Assembly: GCA_051294375.1 (NCBI GenBank)
Contig: CM119264.1
Coordinates: 11,968,263-12,032,262, forward strand
Direction of reading: 5' to 3'
Source: Paraspadella gotoi
Taxonomy: Eukaryota; Animalia; Chaetognatha
DNA length: 64,000 bases
Shown here: positions 13,875 through 55,385 of the stretch, piece by piece
Position numbering within the stretch: position 1 is the stretch's first letter
Layout of the letters: every line of letters starts with the position of its first letter
The notes under the pieces: generated by a model
Seen by the model: only the letters and a program-made list of their open reading frames with translations
Told to the model about the DNA's origin: nothing
The model's database searches: none
Translations under genes and position numbers: made by a program

Positions 13875-20449
<6,575 letters not shown>

Positions 20450-20883
20450 TGTTTGCGAGAGTGAGAGAGAGAGGAGAGAGAGAGAGAGGAGATAGGAGAG
20501 CAGAGAGAGAGAGAGACAGAACGTTTTAAATTTTGTTTGAAGTTTGAGAAGAATAGAATAAAATAGTATTTTTATGCGACAAGGTGGAATGAACTCTTAA
20601 TGGATTTAATCATTTTAACTTGTTCAGCCTCAATGAAACGTTTATTACCCCGTGTCGCATCATACCATTTAAGTAAGTGATGATACATTTACTTTTCACA
20701 TAAAAGGAAAAACGAGCAAAATTAAACAGTAAAGCGTAATTTTTGTTTTTTCCACTTTTATTAATTTCCACGTGGACAGCGAAACTTGATTTCCAGCTCA
20801 TCGCACACTTCTTAACCCATACATAACATTTTAAGTCAATCGCTCCGTCCACTCACCAGAAATGGGCGTTCAAAGCTATGGTG

Positions 20884-43269: not shown

Positions 43270-44614
43270 TTACAAATCCAAAAATGCTTTCAGTTTTTGC
43301 TCGAAGTTGATGTCGGCCCAAGGCGAGCGGTCGTGGACTTGCCAGTCGTTGACGAGGCGTTGGGCGCAGTGACCCGGGGAAGAGACGTTGAAACGATCGA
43401 AGAGGCGAGTCTGTCTATCGAAGGGCACCAACTGATCGAGGACGCTCGAGTACATGAGGAGGCAAGACCCGTTGGCTGCGAGGCTTTCCAGCGCCGGTCG
43501 AGTGTCCATGAAGGAACGGAAGAATAGCGGCGCTGGAACCCGAGATGGTTGGGGTTAAGATGGAATTAAAACTTACGTAATATAAATGTTTGGGGAATTT
43601 CGTTAGATGTACCAATGGCCATTCCCGTCATCCTGCACGCGTCGGACGCAACCTCCTCCAGATCATCCATGGGATTGTGGAGGATCAGCTTGCGAGATCC
43701 GGCCTCGGCGGCGCCGAGGGCCGAGATGGCGCCGCCCATGGAATGGCCCCAGATGAGGACGTCGCTTCGCCGTTTCTTGGAGGCGTCGGCGACGAAGTCG
43801 AGCAAGAGGGAAAAGGAGGAGAGGATCGTCGAAGGATCGTTCGATCCTTCGCTGGCGCCGAAACCTGATGAGGATGTGGATCGATTAATGAAAGGAAAGT
43901 TTAACAACATTCGCTCGTTAATAATAAATTGACCTGGCAAATCCCATCCGTACACGTCCATCCCGTGTTGCGCGATTAAAGTCAAGTTGCCCAGTTCTTC
44001 CATGAGCGTGTCTTCAGAGAGACGACATGGCATACAATTTTAATTTAATTCTATGTGCATAGCAATGAATTAATTATAACTTGTTAAGTCTATACAAATT
44101 TTATAAATTTACCTCCTCTTCCATAAGTGTAAAAGACGGTGATGTTTCGATGACTCAAAAATCCATCTGGTTTTTTGTTGACTTTTAAAACTGCCAATGT
44201 GGTCGAATCAGTCTTAATTCTGTATGCTTCCGTCTAAAGAAAGTTAAGGTAGAAAAAGACCCAAGTAAAATATAATTCACATCATTTTCTTTAGCGATCC
44301 AAATATCCTTTCGAAAAGATCACGGTACCGCCAGCCGCTCTCACCCTAAAATCTCCGATGTTATCGTTGACCTTTGGGGAGCAGATGATCTCCGGCGGCC
44401 CCAACAACATGTCCTGGATGATGACTGGCAACACGCCCATCAATATCAACAACAGCAGTATGTAGGCCAAGAGCGGCGCCGCCAATATCGACAAGGCCAA
44501 AACGAGGATTTGAAGTTTCGACGCCGCTTTTTGTGGATGACTCCGTCGATGTCGTCGCCAACAAATGAAAATCGCGACGAAGAAAATCGTGCAAATGATG
44601 AGGAAAAGGATCAT
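43270..44614 (-). CDS. Membrane-anchored alpha/beta-fold serine hydrolase, ABHD12/ABHD13-like (~327 aa). Exons 44614-44345, 44233-44113, 44011-43934, 43864-43613, 43532-43270
   Basis: Hand-spliced GT-AG model gives a continuous 984-nt frame. It contains two N-terminal hydrophobic segments, TVFYTYGRG (HG-equivalent), DVYGWDLPG|FGASEG (DxxGxGxS motif restored by removing a 69-nt intron), nucleophile elbow VLIWGHSMGGA, candidate acid SSVLDQLVP and candidate His WQVHDRS. The start codon could lie in a further upstream exon. Confidence 0.85.
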
Positions 44615-47485
44615 CTCGGCCAGGATGGTGCACGGGTGGTAGAGGGGAGCCTCGGCGATCCATTGCTGCCAGAAATTGTTTTGTTTTTCGTATTAATAAC
44701 GAAAATAATTCCTTTTACGCAACAATTCGCATTAGACACTTGACAGAAAAAAAAATTAACAAAAAAAGATTTTAACCTTAGGGGAACTTTCTTGTTCCAG
44801 CGCGACGGTGGGGATCGGTGCACAGTTTTTGTCGAAGACGCGCCAAATGTCAAGAACCTCTTTTTCCATTTTCTTGCTGGATGTATGTAATTATTTATTT
44901 ATTTAATTAGATTGTAAAGTTAGATTATCTGGATAATTGTGATTGGTTATCGTCAAAAAAGTCGTAGAAATCTTTTTTTGAAAAAAGATTCTTTTTTTTT
45001 TTCAAATTAAAGACGAACGTATTTATTTTCAAAGGCGGGAAAAATGAAGAATTTCGTCACTATTATGTTCTTTCGTAACCAATACTGCTTGATTATGAGG
45101 GTTAAATTTCTATCTCCATTCTGAAACTAATTTGCTTAATCAGGAAATAAAATTGCAAAATTTTAAGAGAAGACAGAGACAGCGTAATATTTAAAGACTC
45201 GGAACCCGATTTTTCCTTTAAAACACAGTTTATTTTTTTCCTTTTTTATCCCGCATATCGAATACTTAATTGTTTTCTGGGACGGTTAATTCTTTTCAAT
45301 AACAATTATTACGTCGTGAAGGAGAAATATACCGAAAATAAAAAATAAATATTGTTTATTTCATATCTCAAAACACAAGCGAAATATTTTTGGTCTAGTT
45401 TTTGTAAACTCGTGAGGTTCGAAAATGAAGATAAATTATCAAATTATTTATTCAATTGCAGGATGAACCGGATTTCAAAGTTAAAAAACGTTTAAAATAG
45501 TCCAATGATTGTTTTTAAATGGTTTTTAACTGGAGAACGAGAAAGAAAATAATGCTGGTATCTCCCCAATTATTAGAATTACGAGACCCGAAAATAGCTG
45601 TTGATTCATCTATTTGAATCAGTTATTTTTTTTTCCTCAACATCCGATTGTTGACAGTGAAGACTGTCTGGTGTGACCTGAATCTTTCTCTCTCTATCTC
45701 TCTCTCCTCTCACTCTCTCTCCCCACCTGCATTCGTTCTAATTATTAGCACGTTTCTCCTTTCTGGTCGTCCTAACCTAACTGTCAAATTTATCCCCAGT
45801 GCCCAACCAATTCCAAGCTCCCTTCCCATTCTCCTCGCCAGATCGCTTAAGCTACACCCGATCGCGCGGAAATTGCTTCTCCGCTCCACTGCGACCGCTT
45901 TGCCCCTTCGCTCAATTGCTTTGCTCTATCGCTGCACTGCGCTACTTTAATCGATTGCTTTGTTTTGTTGCTCCTTTGTGTCGCTTTACTCCATTGCTTC
46001 ATCGATATCGTTTCACCAATCCATCACACTGCTTTAGCCTATTCTATCATTAATCCATTGCTTTACTTTTTTTAAATCTTTTCACTTTGTTACAATGTTT
46101 TTGTAGTATAATTTTAGTTTGAATTTATGTAATATAGAGCTTTACTACTAATTCGCTTTGTTTTAGAAATTTTAATTTAGTAACTATCACCATTCACCAC
46201 ATTAAATCCATTGTTAAATCGTTCAATTCAATTCCTTCATTTCTATCCCGCGTATCCGCCCGTCACTCGCCGTTTTTTTCTCAAACTCATCGCCTTCTCG
46301 TTTCTCCCCCCCTCCGACCCCCCCCCCCCGACTTTCCTTCTCCCCCCACCCCATCGCTCCCCCTACTTCATCCGACGTAATCGCATAGAAATTGTTTCGC
46401 CGAAAGAAATTAACATGGAAACGAACTCGAGGTTCATTCAGACTCGGCGCTCGCCGTCTGATTGAAGGCCGCCAGAGAGCGAGGGGTTCCGGCGCCGCTC
46501 GCCGTCGCTGCCGATATATCGAGTAATGCCGATGCCGCCGGATAAATCCGTCGGAGAGAATCGAACGCCGCCGAACGTAAAGACGATGGCGAATGGTCGG
46601 AAAATCGAGAAACAAAGGAAAATATTTTATTCGATTACGTTACATTTAACAACGAAATAGAATCGACCGTCACAATAGCGAACGATACAAGGAAAAGCCC
46701 TTTTGTCCGACCCGTCTGCGCTTTCTTTCGACGAGATGGTTCAAAAGCTCTGGCCAGTTGAAAAAAATAAAAAACAGAATTTACGGATTCCATAAGGGAG
46801 GGAAGAATCTGTGAAAAGGAGGCTGTAACTTGTAGGAATGGAATGAATATGAAAAGGATGGAAAGCGGGAGCGGAAAATGAGAAAAAGGGGAAAATGAAT
46901 ATCATGAGGGAATAAAATGAGTATAAGCAAATGCGTAGAACAAAAAATGACGGATGGAATATAAAGGATTGAATACTGAAGGGAAAAATGAAGTGGATGA
47001 AAATAAGAAATTATAAAAAAAATTGGAGGATAGCGAAATGAAGATTTTTGCAATTGATGTTAACGAAGATGAATCATATGGGAAGGAAGATGATAGAGTA
47101 GAAAAACTATTCTCACGAAAGAAAAAAAATTCTTCTTTCCAAAAAGAAATCCGAGGGAGAAAAAGACAAAAGCCTGGATGACGAGGGTGGGGAAAAAAAA
47201 GGGGGAAATTCATTAGGGAAATTATTTTTTCTTCAAAAATCCTCATTTTCCCTCCTTTTAACTCCAGTATTCGCAGGCGAGAGAGGAATCCGATAATTTT
47301 TTTTTTAATTGCGGATTTTCTTCCCAAGTTTGATCGTTAATTTTGAAGCACGCATTCGAGCTTGTAAGCAGAAAATGATTGTGAAATTTTTGTACTGAAA
47401 TTATTCGTTTTCATAGCGATATCTCAATGTTATCGGTAAACAGTAAACGCGCATATAATAAACTTTTAGCTGGCTAAAGATAACA

Positions 47486-47491
47486 TTTATT
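47486..47491 (-). promoter_or_regulatory. Candidate AATAAA polyadenylation signal of the lamin-like gene
   Basis: tttatt on the + strand about 210 nt downstream of the lamin stop. The region is AT-rich, so chance occurrence is possible. Confidence 0.35.
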
Positions 47492-47701
47492 GATTCGATG
47501 GTAGAGCCAAGTACAAAATTAAAATGTAAATAAAAAATTCGACTTCTCCGTTATCAACGTATATTTGTAAACAAAACAACTAAATCCGGATATACTAATG
47601 ATTCAAGGCATTTTTATATAATCACCAATATAAGATATAAACGAAAAATGTATTAAAAAAAGCCGTTTTTATCCTTCCATTTATCTTTCACATTTGTTTA
47701 T

Positions 47702-50700
47702 TTACATAACGACGCAGCTTTTCGCTCTTTCGCTTCCGGCTTCCAATGGCGTTTCTTCGACAATGGTCCTTGTCACGATCGTCGTCTGCCCAGTCGAGGA
47801 CGTCGACGAAGAAGCGGCTGCCGACGTCGTCGCAGAACTCCTGTAAACGGTGGATGTGACTGGGGAGAAAGAGATGGCCGCGTCCCTCGATGACCTCGTC
47901 CGCGAAGTCATCGGCGTCGAGGACGAGACCGCCGTCAGCTTCATCTCTTTGCCGCCGGCGGACCCCAAAGAGGGCTCCGCCTCGACGGCCATTTCCACGA
48001 AGGATCTCTTCATAGAACGCTTCCGCTTTGTGCTCCGCGCGGGCGACGGAGTTTTCGAGGTGTTGAGACGCTCCTCCTCTCCCTCCAGAAGCTTGCGGTA
48101 GGCGGAGATTTCCATGTCCAGGGCCAATTTGATGTCCAAGAGTTCACGATATTCCGCTAATTGATTCGCCATTTCCTGTTGCAACTCGCCGATCTTAGCG
48201 TCCTTCTCGGCGATTACTCCGCGAAGACCTTCCTCCATCGAGGCGGCGTCTTGTCCCATCTGCTTGACGCGGGCTTCGAAAAGTTTAATTTTGCCCTGGA
48301 GGTCGGTCACTTGAAGACCCAGTTCGTTGATTTTCAAGGAGCTTGAAGAATCGACGACGCTTGCCTTTTCTGGAGATTTTGCCAGCGACTCCTGCAATCC
48401 CCCAAGTTTAGTCTGGTAAATAGCAGCAAGCTCGGCGCGTAAAGCCGTCGACTGCTTATCGTTTTGTTGACGTAACTCTTTCAGATAGGCATGGACTTTG
48501 CTCTCTTTAGGTTCAGAAACGGAGAGCTCGCCACTGACCTCTAGCTTAGATCGGGATTGATTTAATTCTGCGTCAAACAGAGACTTTTTGAAGACCAATT
48601 CTTCTTTGAGAGACTGAAGACGGTTCTCTAGGTCGACTCTGATCAAGGTTTCCTCCTCCAACTGCTTCTTTGCCATGGTAAGTTGGGATTCCAAATCTTC
48701 GTATTTGACGCGAAGGTCAGACAACTCCACTTTGACTCTTTGGCTTTCTCTAGACTCGGCAGCAAGCTGTGCCGAGAGCTCCGTTACTTTCCCCTCTAAA
48801 GCTTTGGCCGACTTTTTCAAAGCAGCAATTTCTGCCTGGCACTGAGCCAGCTCGGCGGCTAAATCCTCGGCCTTGGCTTTCCACTTGCCGACTTCGATCT
48901 GCAGCTTGGCCTTTTCTTTAGAGGTTTGATCGATGAGGATACGAGCGTCGGCTAATTCAGCCTCGAAAATTCCCTTGACGCTGGCGACCTCCTTAATTGC
49001 AGCTTCTTCCGCGCTCAAAATTCTTGCGTCGAGCGTTTGACTGTCGCCTCTCAAACGTTGCACTCGGTCTACGTACGAGGCGAAACGATTGTTTAGAAGT
49101 TGAAGCAAGTCCTTGGTGTGGCTGTAACTCGCGGCCAGAGAATCGGATTTTGAGGCTTTCGATTTTGATTCTTTTGCTTTCATTCCGAAAAGCTCCTCTT
49201 CGGCTTTTAGCATTTTGTCATAGGCCGAAATTTCAAGATCCAAAGCCAGTTTAATATTCATCAACTCTTTAAAATCTAGCATCTTTTCGGACAATTGCGC
49301 TTGGAGATTTTGAATTTCAGCCTCTTTTTCGGACAGGTTAGATAAAAAGGTGACCTCCTTAGCGTTCAATACCCCTTCGAGATTCGCGTATCTCGATTCT
49401 TGGGTTTTCAATTTTTGAAGAAGCTCTTCGATTTTCATAGATAGCTCGTTGATCTTGGATTGACCACTGGCTGTGATTGAAACTGATTTACTTTCTGTAC
49501 CGACCGAATACAAGGTGGCCTGAAGCTCTTGGATTTTGGTGCCATACTTGGATTCCATCTCTAACTTCATGGCGGCCGCTCTCTCGTCATAATGCTGTCG
49601 CAGCTCCTGAAGAGATTTTTCCAAACGAGCATCGTATTCGACCAAAACGGAATCATCCATCTCCACGAGATCAAGGTCCGTCTGTTGCCTCAGCTCCGCT
49701 TCATACATGGAACTTTTAACGTTGGTTTCTTGTTTGAAAGTCGCCATCTCCTTTTCCAGGGTAAGTTTCGACTGATCAGAAATATCCAAGTCTTTCTTCA
49801 AGGAAGTTATCTTGAGTTGCAGCTCGGAGATTTCCGCTTTGAATTTCGCCACGCCGTCAAGCGCCGCTTGTTTCTCCCTCAATGCGGCTTCCAATTTCGC
49901 GGAAAGGGAAGAAATTTCCTTTTCTGCTGATTTTAAATTGCCCTTGAGCATTTTCAATTCAGCCTCCAGGTTTTTTAACTTGGCTCTCAGATCTTCGTTC
50001 GTTTCTTTTAATTTTTTTATCTCCAGAGACAAATTAGCCTTTGCCTTTGACAACTCGTCCACCATCTTCTGTTTCTCCGTCAACCTAACCTCGTATCCCT
50101 CTTTCATTTTCGCCATTTGCTTTTGCTTTTGATCCTCGAAGTTTTGCAACTGAAGGCGAAGTTCCTTCTTCTCAACTTCGAGATGCTTGAGATTTTCCTC
50201 GATGAATCCGGCAAATCGATCGTTCAGCATCTGCAATTCCTTCTTGAGGTCACCCTTGACCTTGGAGGGCTTGGCGATGCGTACTCTCTCTTCCTCGGAA
50301 AGAAGCAACTTATTGTAGGCTTCGACTTCGACCTCGAGTGCAAGATGCAAGTTGATCAAGTCGTTGTATTTCTTCATGCAAGACGACACCTGGCCTTGGA
50401 GCTCGGTTATTTGTTTGTCCTTTGTTACCAGCGCAGCGTTATGTTTCGCCTCTCTGCCGGCAGATTCCCTCTCCATACTGGCGATTTTTGATTCGTACAT
50501 TTTAATTTTTCCGTTCAGATTGTTGATTTGCAGAGCAAGATCCGAGATTTGCATTTCGCTTTTGGCGAGATCGGCGGAGGCGTCGGTATCGACCGGCACC
50601 GTCTGCCTCGCGGCGCTGAATCCCTTTGCGTGAGACTTGTACATATTTTGCAACTCGGCCTGTAACTCCGCCGCCTTCTTGTCATAATGCTCTCTCAAGC

Positions 50701-51610
50701 CCCTGAGCGATTCCTGCAGCTTTAACTCGATGTTGACGGCCGACTGCTTATAACCCCTGGTGACAGGCGAACCAGCTCCTCCCACCTCGAACACGCTCGT
50801 CTTAAACTCCAACTCTTCCTTCAATGACTGCATCTGGTTCTCCAAGGCGGCCCGCTGAAGCACGCTTTCCTCGAGCTTTGATCGGGCCGCGTCGAATTGC
50901 TTTTCCAGCTCGGCGAACCGGGTCTTCAGAGAAGTGCATTCCATCACTGCGGCCTTTCCCTCGCTCGTCGCCGCACTCAACTTCTCCGTGAGGGCAACGA
51001 TTTTAGCCTCGGCGTCTCCGAGCGCCTTACGCAGCCTCGTCGCATCCGCGTCGCTCTTGGCGAGTTGGGCGGTGGAGGCGTCCGCCTCTCCCTTCCATCG
51101 TTTCGCTTCGAGCTCGAGGCGTCCGTTTCGATCCTCGGCGTCAACGAGGCGTCGATTGACGTCGGAGATTTGCGTCTCGAAAAGGCTCTTCAGTCCTGAG
51201 ATTTCCTGAACGTAGGTCTCCTTTGTGTTGGTGATTTGCACTGTGAGCGAAAGATTTTCCGCTTCCAAATTCCGAACTCTCTCGATGTAGTTGGCGAATC
51301 GGTCGTTGAGAACCTGAAGCTCTTCCTTTTCGTGAAGACGTTGGACTCGCGCCGGAGAGATGGGCGATTGACGCGAGGAAGCGCCGGAGCCGTTCATCGA
51401 AGCTGCGCCGTTTTTCGAAGACGCAGTCACCGATGCGTAGGAAGCCTTGGCGCCTTTCGTCACTGACGACGACGACGAAGTTTGAACGAAGGTTTTCGTC
51501 TGCTGAACGAAAGGCGTTGACGACGACGATTCTTGGACGGAGATGGCGACGCCTTCGGTTGGATCCGGCGTCTTCTGTCGCTTCGATCCTTTTTTCCCGC
51601 GGGACGACAT
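47702..51610 (-). CDS. Lamin-like nuclear intermediate filament protein with three tandem rod domains, NLS and CaaX, lacking the Ig/LTD domain (1302 aa, single exon)
   Basis: Uninterrupted 3909-nt ORF. Lamin head/coil-1A signature SPISPARVQRLHEKEELQVLNDRFANYIERVRNLEAEN (cf. the lamin pattern [21 protein letters not shown]). Three LN[D/N]RF coil-1A motifs (L101, L462, L839) and three coil-2 end motifs (AYNKLLLSEEER A431, AYDKMLKAEEEL A796, AYRKLLEGEEERL A1170). Tail carries TPSP+KRKR and ends in CVVM-stop. Confidence 0.95.
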   Translation of the reverse strand: MSSRGKKGSKRQKTPDPTEGVAISVQESSSSTPFVQQTKTFVQTSSSSSVTKGAKASYASVTASSKNGAASMNGSGASSRQSPISPARVQRLHEKEELQVLNDRFANYIERVRNLEAENLSLTVQITNTKETYVQEISGLKSLFETQISDVNRRLVDAEDRNGRLELEAKRWKGEADASTAQLAKSDADATRLRKALGDAEAKIVALTEKLSAATSEGKAAVMECTSLKTRFAELEKQFDAARSKLEESVLQRAALENQMQSLKEELEFKTSVFEVGGAGSPVTRGYKQSAVNIELKLQESLRGLREHYDKKAAELQAELQNMYKSHAKGFSAARQTVPVDTDASADLAKSEMQISDLALQINNLNGKIKMYESKIASMERESAGREAKHNAALVTKDKQITELQGQVSSCMKKYNDLINLHLALEVEVEAYNKLLLSEEERVRIAKPSKVKGDLKKELQMLNDRFAGFIEENLKHLEVEKKELRLQLQNFEDQKQKQMAKMKEGYEVRLTEKQKMVDELSKAKANLSLEIKKLKETNEDLRAKLKNLEAELKMLKGNLKSAEKEISSLSAKLEAALREKQAALDGVAKFKAEISELQLKITSLKKDLDISDQSKLTLEKEMATFKQETNVKSSMYEAELRQQTDLDLVEMDDSVLVEYDARLEKSLQELRQHYDERAAAMKLEMESKYGTKIQELQATLYSVGTESKSVSITASGQSKINELSMKIEELLQKLKTQESRYANLEGVLNAKEVTFLSNLSEKEAEIQNLQAQLSEKMLDFKELMNIKLALDLEISAYDKMLKAEEELFGMKAKESKSKASKSDSLAASYSHTKDLLQLLNNRFASYVDRVQRLRGDSQTLDARILSAEEAAIKEVASVKGIFEAELADARILIDQTSKEKAKLQIEVGKWKAKAEDLAAELAQCQAEIAALKKSAKALEGKVTELSAQLAAESRESQRVKVELSDLRVKYEDLESQLTMAKKQLEEETLIRVDLENRLQSLKEELVFKKSLFDAELNQSRSKLEVSGELSVSEPKESKVHAYLKELRQQNDKQSTALRAELAAIYQTKLGGLQESLAKSPEKASVVDSSSSLKINELGLQVTDLQGKIKLFEARVKQMGQDAASMEEGLRGVIAEKDAKIGELQQEMANQLAEYRELLDIKLALDMEISAYRKLLEGEEERLNTSKTPSPARSTKRKRSMKRSFVEMAVEAEPSLGSAGGKEMKLTAVSSSTPMTSRTRSSRDAAISFSPVTSTVYRSSATTSAAASSSTSSTGQTTIVTRTIVEETPLEAGSERAKSCVVM
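48068..49117 (-). other. IF rod domain 3 of the lamin-like protein (aa ~832-1181)
   Basis: Runs from LLQLLNNRFASYVDRV through KKQLEEETLIRVDLENRLQSLKEELVF to LLDIKLALDMEISAYRKLLEGEEERL. Spacing is 331 aa. By eye this is the most canonical lamin rod. Confidence 0.92.
49190..50248 (-). other. IF rod domain 2 of the lamin-like protein (aa ~455-807)
   Basis: Runs from LKKELQMLNDRFAGFIEE to IKLALDLEISAYDKMLKAEEEL. Spacing is 334 aa. Contains EYDARLEKSLQELRQHYD, typical of lamin coil 2 start. Confidence 0.88.
50285..51331 (-). other. IF rod domain 1 of the lamin-like protein (aa ~94-442)
   Basis: Runs from EKEELQVLNDRFANYIERV to LALEVEVEAYNKLLLSEEER. LNDR-to-AY spacing is 330 aa, the long lamin-type coil 1B. 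Internal LEESVLQRAALENQMQSLKEELEF matches lamin coil 1B end. Confidence 0.9.
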
Positions 51611-52527
51611 TTTTTTAAGAATTTGGATTCAACAAAGTACAGGCCGGCGGCGAATTAATATTTTTTATCCAAAAGAACCTTTATTTCTGTTTTCTTAGGT
51701 TTTAAGCTTTGTGTTTTTGTTTCCAACTTTTACCGCTTCGCCGTCATGCCTCGACGCAAACTTTCGTCCAGCATTTAGAGAAGAAAAAAACGAAAACACT
51801 CCAGGAATCTTTCGAAAGGCCGGGCCAAGCTTCAATTCGACGACGACGACGACGACGACGACTATTAAAACCACCAAGGAGCTCTGCACCTTGGATGAGC
51901 GGGAAGATAGAATATTGCCGGGCCGCCGTTGCGTCGGGCTGCGGCTTTCTGAAGCGGCGTAACGCTGCGTAATGCGGCAGTGGCGAATCAGGGCGAGGCG
52001 GCGAAACTTGCCCGACGAGTTTTAGACAGAGAAAGTCTGTCTGACGCCGATTCACTCCCGTTCAAAAGGTTTCGAGGAAACAATTCTGTTGAAATAAAAT
52101 TTAACATTCAACAATTTTAATAAATGCATTAAAAAGTTTCAGTTAATTGAAAGTGATAAGAAAAAATACATTTATAAAATTATCACTGATTATCTGGCAG
52201 TCCCAAACGATCTTTTAATGTAACAACCCTTAGGAGTTGGGGTAAATCGAGTTCTTCTCCTAATTATATCCACCCAAACTGTTAAAGATAATTAAGAATA
52301 TCTTTTTTTATTTTGTTGATCAACCAAGAGAGGGCCAACGTAAATATTTTAACCCAAAGCAGAAAAAAAGGTATTTGGGATTTTGCCATGCAGATACGCC
52401 GATTTTGACAGTAAATTCGCAGGGAAATTCTTGCCGAATCTGATAAACTACGACTACGCCAAATTTATCTTTCGGTAATAGTAATTTAAACGTTAGAGAG
52501 CGACGACTACTTATATCGATTATTATA

Positions 52528-52730: not shown

Positions 52731-55385
52731 TCTCAATGTATATTTTCGTGCCGCTGGGACGTAATATCCCGGTCCGCTCGAAAGAACACCTTCCTGCTTC
52801 TGGCATGCGGCTTTAAAAACCTTCTCTCTTTTCCCTTTTTTTTTTTTTCTTTTCCTACTTTTCCCCCCTTTTTCCCGCTAAAATTTAAATCGGATTTTTA
52901 AAAGGGCGCAACCGACGAGAATTTTTTTCCCCCTTTTTTGAAAATTGAAATAAAAAAAACGTGGATTCGAGCCGAAAGGAAAAAAAACCCAAATTTGTTT
53001 GCTTTTAATTACGATTAATTCTTTGTTTTATTATTAAACATTAATATTTTTTATTTGGCAATAATTTTGCGACCACGTGCTAAAAACGTGCGGCTTTTAG
53101 TCGTCGAGTGAGGAACGAGGAAGCAACGTTGCGCGGCTTGAATTTATTGTGTTTTTTTTTTCAACTTTCCCCCCCCCCAAAAAAAAGGTTTCATCCGAAT
53201 AAAAAAGGCAAAATTTTTGATGTGGTGACTCATCCTTAAAGAATCCTTTATGACCGGCGTTTTTCGAGGCAGAAATTTTTGAAATTAAAACGAAACTTCC
53301 TGTTGTTAGATGTTGAGACTTTTATTCAAACATAACAAACCCGCATCGTTCGATTCTTGGTTTCGATTACGAGAAATATTTGAGAACTATATTTATAGTG
53401 AAGTGGAACAGCTACACCCACGACATTAGCAAAAAAATTCAAGAGAAGAAGGTGGCAGAGCGAGAGTTTTGTGTGGAGCACACATTGGCTCGGATAGATC
53501 GAGNNNNNNNNNNAGAGAGAGAGAGAGAGAGTTAGAGAGTCTCAGTCAGAGAAGAATCCTTGGGTCGAGATAACTTTATAACCCAATTTTTTTCTCCTTT
53601 ATTTTCTATTTCTTTCAATCCCCTTTTTCTATTTCTACTTCTTTTTCTGTTTTGATTTCTTTTTCCATTTTTCCCCGTCGTTTTCTCGTTCAACCTTGAA
53701 AATCGAAGGAAATTTTCAGCGGAGAGAATCGAATCGAATGGAAAAAAAGAATATATTTTCCGAGTTTGTTGAGGTTTTTAAAATATATTGGTGTTTTTTC
53801 TTTTTATTCTTTGACAAAGTATGGAAAATTGTTGAAATGGTAAAGATTAAAGAATTTTCAAATGTTTTTATTAATATCAACATCTAACGTTTCAATTCAG
53901 TGACAAACTCGGGACCTCACTGACAGCGACCATTCTGATCAGATCACTCACTGATTCCTCAGACCCCCAGATTCCATTTTGCCAAGCTGAGAAATTAAAA
54001 ATGATATCGAGTATGACTAATTTTTTATGCCAACTCTTTAGTCTAAACTCTACGTTCACAGTCTACTCTCTTCTCTTAGTCATATTTATATTTTTGAATT
54101 TTTTTCTTCGATTTTTGTCATCTTCTTTTTCAATTTTATATTTCTGATCTTTTATATTCGTCGCCGGCCTTTAATCTTCTCTTTTGTCTTCCCTCAACTT
54201 TCTTTACTTTGTAAGACGTATAGAAATAAAAAAAGAAGGAAGGTTTATATAATTAATCAAATATTAAAAGCGAGATGCTCTTTTTTCTCTATTTTTAACT
54301 CCCTCTGTTTCCGGCTGCGTTGTTTTTTTTTTCTTTTCAAAGACGCTTCTTTCAGTGCAAAAAAGCCTGCAAAGTTCAAGCAGATTGAATCCAGTCGTGG
54401 CAGAAGCTTGAAAAAGAGCGTTTAAAAAAACATGTTAAGCCTTAAATTAAGGACATTAAAAAAACTCGCAATTGCCCTACGTGGCGCGTGAGAGGTTCGC
54501 TTTTGAGAAGGATAAATTACACGGTAATAGTCGATACAATAACCATTAACCATACAAGAATTTCAGCTTAAAAAGCGAGCGACCTATATATATTGACTAG
54601 CACTAGAAGAGAAAACCTTTTTATTGCAGGCAAGAACATTACTGAAGTGCAAAATATGAAAAGCAAGCGAAGAAAAAAAAATTGAAAGAATCTCCATCAG
54701 GGCGCATGAAAGCGCGTGTCAGACAACGCGCTTGCTTCGAACGGCACCCGTAAATCCGCGTGTAACTTCGCGCGCGAGAGAAAATACAAAAAAAATCGAG
54801 CACGAAGAAGACCCTCCTTATATTTCCTTTTTTTTTTCTTTTTCTTCTTCTTTCTTTTATCTCTCGAAAGAAACAGTTTGAAAAAAAAGTGTCAAAAAAA
54901 AAAAAAAAATCGGGGTCGACCGTCGTGAGGAGCGCGGGTTAATGACGCCGTCGTTTCCGGCGCGGAGGGACCTTGACTCGAACTTCGTCCCCGTCACCCC
55001 AGTCGACCCTGTCACCCCGCCACCCCTGTCATCCCTGTCACGGCGTCACCCGCGTCACCGGGAGGAAGATGTTGAAGATGAAGGTGAGAGAGGGCGGCGC
55101 CCGCGGTTATGACCTTAATGTCGCGAGCGAAGCGCGATCGGCATGAGAGAGGACGACGTTGACGATGGGGGGGGGGAGTGCCAGAGGTCGAGGGGTGGAG
55201 GGGAGGGGTTTGTCGATTGTCTTTGATGTGGGGACGAGTATGGAGAACTGACAGTGAAATGGGGGAAGATTTTTTAGCAGTCAAAAAAAGAATCATGATG
55301 ACGATGACGATTCAGTCTCCGATGGGACGAAAGGTGGCGTTGGCGGTTTTTTATGAGGACGTCGATGACGAACGGAATGAAGTGT

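Follow-up and report, generated by a model that had tools for sequence, protein, structure and literature searches.

An apparently conserved and expressed triple-rod lamin derivative in the chaetognath Paraspadella gotoi

Lamins of chaetognaths have been described as a single protein per species in eight species, 480-511 amino acids (aa) in length and lacking the lamin tail domain (LTD) (Stick and Peter, PMC10125929). Absence of the LTD has been published for both chaetognath and ascidian lamins (PMC10125929, PMC4448529). Variant lamin architectures include losses of the Ig domain, of the CaaX motif or of the tail, and the gain of a PDZ domain (Kollmar 2015, PMC4448529); the architecture passages of that paper report no multiplied rod, and chaetognaths are not mentioned in them. 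Here we describe a stretch of 64,000 nucleotides from the chaetognath Paraspadella gotoi (contig CM119264.1, positions 11,968,263 to 12,032,262; hereafter the window). On its minus strand, to which all gene coordinates below refer, an intronless open reading frame (ORF) at 47702..51610 encodes, uninterrupted by stops, a protein of 1,302 aa with three intermediate filament (IF) rods.

Our interpretation, to which we assign a probability of about 0.62, is that the gene is an expressed, lamin-derived chaetognath paralog with a triplicated rod, whose product would form a hinged dimer about three rods long, predicted to be anchored to the nuclear envelope by a single tail and to polymerize through its outer rod ends. 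We conclude that the gene is genuine and expressed, and that the triple-rod derivative of lamins it encodes appears to be conserved. IF proteins follow a tripartite plan of head, single rod and tail. The protein has three rods and therefore departs from this plan, and we class it as a lamin-derived paralog and not as a canonical lamin.

When the full protein (computed mass 144.6 kDa) was scanned with the Pfam Filament profile (PF00038) at a bit cut-off of 40, three separate stretches were matched, and each rod scanned singly covered the nearly complete model. Rod 1 (aa 94-442; 50285..51331) aligned to profile positions 2-313 with 156 bits, rod 2 (aa 456-806; 49193..50245) to positions 3-312 with 133 bits, and rod 3 (aa 833-1181; 48068..49114) to positions 3-313 with 200 bits. 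Coil-1A motifs occur at L101, L462 and L839, with the coil-2 end motif 330, 334 and 331 aa downstream. The same spacing is 336-337 in single-rod lamins (measurable in 16 of 17 reference lamins), and the shortfall sits after coil 1B, which has lamin length in all three rods, aligning without the 42-residue gap. The rods are joined by linker 1 (approximately aa 443-455; 50246..50284), whose sequence VRIAKPSKVKGD was found as previously quoted, and by linker 2 (approximately aa 807-832; 49115..49192). The head (aa 1-93; 51332..51610) has the basic N-terminus common to single-rod chaetognath-type lamins. CDK1-type SPAR sites at aa 85 and aa 1189 flank the outer rod ends only, and the second of these stands with a putative nuclear localization signal (NLS), a single KRKR at aa 1195-1198 (site and signal together at 48017..48046), recognized by motif in the same context as in single-rod forms. 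The Ser/Thr-rich tail (47705..48016) terminates in a candidate CaaX motif, CVVM (47716-47705). Pfam detected no LTD in the protein, and the final 120 aa matched no family. The initial annotation had reported the three motif pairs and one head, one KRKR and one CVVM, and had predicted three non-overlapping, full-length PF00038 matches without PF00932 (LTD); coordinates, spacing, profile matches and single occurrences were all reproduced, and the strand, which it had not given, is minus. The missing LTD is not new in itself, its loss in chaetognath lamins having been published (PMC10125929), and given the published absence in chaetognath and ascidian lamins it is not decisive against lamin identity.

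The protein resembles metazoan lamins in its rods with a long coil 1B, NLS, CaaX motif and flanking CDK1-type sites. It shares with the single-rod lamins of chaetognaths the lack of an LTD, the CaaX end, a near-identical basic N-terminus and a block with a CDK site and KRKR after the rod. It differs from them in having three rods, 1,302 aa and a longer Ser/Thr-rich tail, and it does not appear in the eight-species survey (PMC10125929). Our literature searches, whose scope left subscription journals, including lamin reviews, mostly outside, found no multi-rod lamin in print; those aimed at multiple rods gave unrelated listings. The word lamin is absent from the main text of PMC12460157, and none of five terms looked for occurs in the three supplements checked; the only related mentions in the main text of a chaetognath single-nucleus preprint are of laminin, the basal lamina and a single cytoplasmic IF; and PMC6145532 holds no description of the host lamina. 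Coiled-coil components of the lamina also occur in plants (NMCP) and trypanosomes (NUP-1), and the likeness of the triple-rod protein to them is one of analogy only. Both are very long proteins. They do not belong to the IF family, according to the passage of PMC10125929 that treats them.

Searches of protein collections returned two classes of close match. The first comprises single-rod lamins, among them P0009-P0012 (496-509 aa, without LTD), which fit the published description of chaetognath lamins; the rods of the triple-rod protein are 39-50% identical to P0009 and P0011 over the aligned stretches. The second class comprises rod fragments that are 42-57% identical to the triple-rod protein (P0001), each at its own rod position. 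Among fragments 44-57% identical to it, junction 1 is kept in eight database records and junction 2 in three, in both cases as two sequence types that are 62% identical. Two records that are 98% identical, P0302 and P0128, jointly tile aa 122-773, and P0275 spans the end of rod 2 through the CaaX motif, with CILM as its last residues. Tiled in this manner, the fragments point to three rods in relatives as well. In run X11, from another organism, short pieces of at least 80% identity are collinear with rod 1 and rod 3, and one loose end, translated by hand, is specific to rod 3; no contig of run X10, from a different organism, aligned at 80% identity, which is not proof of absence. A near-length search gave six matches among 7,992 scored candidates, with a maximum query cover of 28%. 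A phmmer search against 1.84 billion representatives placed no full-length multi-rod relative among its best 150 matches, and the ESM Atlas returned ordinary Filament clusters only and contains no model of the protein.

A tree of 26 rows and 362 columns, from which three short fragments, another five rows and one more had been left out, was rooted with a sponge lamin. Each rod grouped with its positional counterpart from other sources, with ultrafast bootstrap (UFBoot) values of 100 each, and all rods together with the single-rod chaetognath-type lamins formed one clade (UFBoot 99, FastTree 0.998). Rods 1 and 2 appeared as sisters (UFBoot 92), both on long branches. The identity of a protostome cytoplasmic IF was considered and rejected, given the presence of the NLS and CaaX motifs and the placement of the rods with lamins; two mollusc cytoplasmic IFs stood apart from the rods in the tree. 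The simplest history would be that a gene was duplicated and its rod then duplicated internally twice, all before these lineages split, an order of events that we infer from the sequences.

The rods differ in what they have conserved. Conservation was scored at 108 columns, each kept in 13 or more of 15 single-rod lamins. The outer ends (the start of rod 1 and the end of rod 3) retain 38 of their 41 columns, compared with 47 of 82 at the four inner ends (Fisher p 3e-5, for columns that are not independent). Rod 1 has a canonical coil-1A start (18/21) and a degenerate coil-2 end (12/20), rod 2 is degenerate at both ends, with an insertion of one residue in coil 1A that is also present in relatives, and rod 3 has a degenerate coil-1A start (11/21) and a complete coil-2 end (20/20). 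Even the two mollusc cytoplasmic IFs keep 15-16/21 and 15/20, above every inner end. At both inner coil-2 ends the terminal motif has lost its Arg, Glu and Gly, here and in relatives, and the pattern of kept outer and degenerate inner ends recurs in related fragments. The coil-1B signature, which marks the antiparallel A11 contact, is intact in rod 3 only (19/19); rod 1 keeps part of it, and rod 2, in which L12/coil 2 is the best kept segment (16/19), has lost it (4/19). In two bins placed at equal distances on either side of lamin A residue 146, where A11 is centered (PMC6704074), rod 3 keeps 11/12 and 15/15 columns and rod 2 keeps 5/12 and 2/15; in the A22 region, as delimited in a passage of PMC10183791, the conserved columns are too few to judge. 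The initial annotation had seen three full rods in one chain, which holds; the rods are not equivalent, with the coil-1B signature confined to rod 3.

We propose that two covalent joints replace two head-to-tail contacts, because conserved residues are missing at the inner ends but present at the outer ones; such decay would be expected if a covalent link had removed the need for the contact. Dimer form, localization and assembly of the protein are extrapolated here from what is known of the family. By analogy with lamin biochemistry, the NLS would import the protein and its CaaX motif would be farnesylated, coil 1A of rod 1 would dock onto the coil-2 end of rod 3 of the following dimer, rod 3 would engage in A11 contacts in antiparallel orientation, and in mitosis the protein would be released through the two CDK1-type sites next to its outer ends. 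The inner joints would likely be short flexible tethers standing in for two reversible head-to-tail contacts, with no copy of the overlap. The calculated dimer length is approximately 159 nm (1,072 residues x 0.1485 nm), and the protein would most likely act as a long strut beside ordinary single-rod lamin, with one membrane anchor per approximately 160 nm of chain.

The same division of conserved segments, with coil 1A in rod 1, L12/coil 2 in rod 2, and coil 1B plus the coil-2 end in rod 3, is also what a branching cross-linker could show, in which flexible joints let each rod pair with a different chain or filament and thereby tie lamin filaments into a mesh. Helix breaks predicted at the joints, together with linkers of varying length, would permit independent rods, and a single-rod partner is available in the same organism. 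Once one rod has paired, however, a short tether should favor in-register pairing with the same chain, and the likeness of only about 30% between rods should favor pairing of like with like. We consider the cross-linker unlikely, though worth keeping in view.

The initial annotation had pictured three hard-wired steps of head-to-tail assembly. In a pre-assembled segment of canonical kind, the inner joints would keep the four-helix overlap and the linker would loop back. Covalent joints in place of two contacts agree with our preferred reading of hinged tethers; the canonical overlap itself is probably not reproduced. With rod ends positioned according to the relevant part of PMC7407374, junction 1 comprises 13 residues in this protein, against 15 or 22 in relatives; junction 2 comprises 25-26. 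Junction 1 can stretch to approximately 5 nm at most, less than a modelled overlap of 6.5 nm, or one of about 10 nm, though within the early estimate of 1-3 nm; published estimates of the lamin overlap, as assembled in that part of PMC7407374, run from 1-3 up to 14 nm. A single-sequence AlphaFold model of aa 371-957 places helix breaks at aa 443-450 and 813-823, that is, in both linkers. The persistence of an LNDRF-type core and of the terminal-motif Tyr at the inner ends favors a retained overlap, as do the sufficient length of linker 2 and the early estimates of only 1-3 nm. Against it stand the reach of junction 1 and the disappearance of three terminal-motif residues (Arg, Glu and Gly) from both inner coil-2 ends, in relatives as well. 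On balance we regard a looped-back overlap at the inner joints as improbable.

Nine sequencing runs from three studies contained at least 92% of the sampled words, and contigs of 8 of the 11 listed runs were aligned to the window. The initial annotation had called for sequence across both rod junctions, and X1, X3, X6 and X7 each supply it in one contig. That of X3 (47655-51829) has flat depth through gene and flanks, as genomic DNA would; that of X1 (47417-51829) has flanks almost uncovered, and X2, identical to it in contig and depth and probably the same data, was counted with it as one data set. The contig of X6 (47547-52085) leaves the genome into a spliced leader (SL), that of X7 (47547-51601) ends in poly(A), and X9 covers the ORF in four pieces. 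None of the Paraspadella gotoi runs aligned has a joint listed inside the ORF. The first four aligned runs contain four substitutions in the coding sequence (CDS), all synonymous, and their sole CDS indel is of 3 nt and in frame. In X9, a divergent allele of the 5' untranslated region (UTR) and head was also observed (51481-51802), with six substitutions and several indels, one of them in frame; the end of its contig resembles what we take to be a template-switch adapter, which suggests a cDNA library.

At 52085 the loose end of X6 consists of 22 nt identical to the 3' end of the chaetognath spliced leader SL2.0 (PMC2481426, Table 3), a sequence without a match in the window when up to three mismatches are allowed; the leader by itself makes a chaetognath the most likely source of the gene. 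The point of departure is an AG acceptor (52085..52087): a pyrimidine/T-rich tract precedes the AG at 52087-52086, and the body of the message begins at 52085 with a 5' UTR of 475 nt (51611..52085) containing two upstream ATGs. A loose end of X7 at 52087 carries another leader of 20 nt at the same acceptor, absent from the SL table of PMC2481426, which may be a further spliced leader or an upstream exon. At the other end of the gene, non-templated T runs of 20-23 nt at 47544 and 47547 in X6, X7 and X9, without such a run in the genomic context, are read as poly(A) tails and delimit a 3' UTR at 47544..47701. Leader and poly(A) in these short-read contigs point to an intronless message of approximately 4.5 kb.

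The same contigs bear on whether the single rods could be the functional products, released by cutting of the linkers (a polyprotein) or by internal trans-splicing or polyadenylation. The linkers are Lys-rich and predicted to be unstructured, and nearly half of chaetognath genes are trans-spliced (PMC12460157). Among the loose ends listed, however, no SL or poly(A) end falls inside the ORF, and rods 1 and 2 would be released without NLS and CaaX motif. Because the inner ends have become less conserved, they are presumably never free, and the linker sequences have not been preserved among relatives in the way expected of a cleavage site. Linker 1 differs in length among relatives, and linker 2 contains an SPAK motif in two relatives and lacks it in this copy. 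We give this explanation little credence.

Repeated rod coverage was found in 15 of 361 collected proteins, a sample of search matches and not a full census of architectures: the triple-rod protein, nine related fragments and five others (P0319 is the fifth, left out below). The remaining four (P0201, P0243, P0155 and P0223) resemble the triple-rod protein in that a single predicted protein contains rods, or parts of rods, in more than one copy. They differ from it in internal copies that are 84-98% identical, against 29-33% here, which suggests that gene models were merged or the assembly duplicated. The first of these, a fish keratin model of 787 aa and a singleton, has two complete rods, 84% identical and joined via about 110 residues of tail plus head, and is likely two tandem genes merged. 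P0192 (963 aa), with an IF rod and tail behind an N-terminus that is presumably calponin-homology-like, may also be a merged model. These four records would be a precedent for an artefact at our locus too, in which tandem paralogs were misjoined or gene models merged, but this is hardly credible for an ORF that is continuous genomic DNA, with rod copies about 30% identical, junctions crossed by contigs from three studies, and divergent relatives that keep them. Strong divergence of the rods and an intact frame had already been advanced against assembly duplication, and the pairwise rod identities of 29, 33 and 32% bear this out. Furthermore, blastn of the CDS against the window gave the self-match alone, with no DNA-level similarity among rods, tblastn found no second lamin in the window, and between 40,000 and 60,000, the range checked, the run of N closest to the ORF begins at 53,504.

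Several points weigh against the hinged triple-rod lamin that we favor. Protein, localization and assembly are all predicted, and the reading rests on sequence. The three rods as a group are only weakly monophyletic with respect to the single-rod lamin (UFBoot 77), and no single database record contains both junctions together. The Fisher test assumes independent columns, its segments were picked after the alignment had been seen, and 57% of conserved columns are still kept at the inner ends, so that some overlap contact may remain there; linker 2, at 25-26 residues and about 9 nm, could accommodate an overlap of 6.5 nm. The AlphaFold model has a mean pLDDT (predicted local distance difference test score) of 66, falling to approximately 50 or lower at the junctions. 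The run evidence consists of short-read contigs and not of single molecules, with rare forms dropped, none of the runs is recorded as RNA, in itself evidence neither for nor against, so that SL and poly(A) are the sole basis for RNA status, and X3, X6 and X7 are possibly the source data of the window itself.

The triple-rod gene is accompanied by an ordinary lamin. X2 and X7 contain a separate contig (2,567 or 2,059 nt) that matches the coil-1A region only and whose loose ends hand-translate to a single-rod lamin, so that Paraspadella gotoi has both genes. With an ordinary single-rod lamin in the same organism, the triple-rod gene probably represents an additional paralog, and its product would not be the only protein of the lamina. 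The changes in mesh, mechanics and membrane attachment of the lamina that the initial annotation suggested are putative. A third contig in these two runs matches the coil-1A motif (51273-51310), and its loose end hand-translates to a start of cytoplasmic-IF type, indicating a putative cytoplasmic IF gene as well.

Elsewhere in the window, two ORFs lie downstream of the triple-rod gene on the same strand (43566-44692); one matches an alpha/beta-hydrolase (Hydrolase_4, E 2e-7) and the other is hydrophobic, and they are possibly exons of a single membrane hydrolase gene. Resembling spurious reading frames recur, 14305-15648 with 17564-18845 and 16996-17520 with 20151-20525. The recurrence at about 14300-18850 suggests diverged local duplications, possibly the assembly duplication that the initial annotation had mentioned in this window.

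One rod per chain has been treated as a rule of IF proteins, and a natural, conserved triple rod would break it. The repeat of a lamin filament is set by the length of the rod, and the geometry of the head-to-tail contact is an open question on which the triple-rod protein would be a built-in experiment: residues that have decayed at tethered inner ends yet are kept at free outer ends would mark what the contact requires, and linker length would set a bound on the overlap. The protein may also serve as a template for engineering longer filament units. In chaetognath nuclei it is a candidate structural factor; chaetognath chromatin has been reported to have weak domain and compartment structure (PMC12460157), and a link between the two is speculation. 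On a reading to which we give about even odds, this would be the first natural IF protein whose rod has been multiplied covalently. It would be an old lamin paralog, chaetognath-wide in distribution, with the assembly sites of one lamin rod shared out among three: rod 1 would provide the start and rod 2 the spacer, while rod 3 would make the lateral and end contacts. The result would be a unit of approximately 160 nm and a lamina whose periodicity and anchor density would be unlike those of any other animal.

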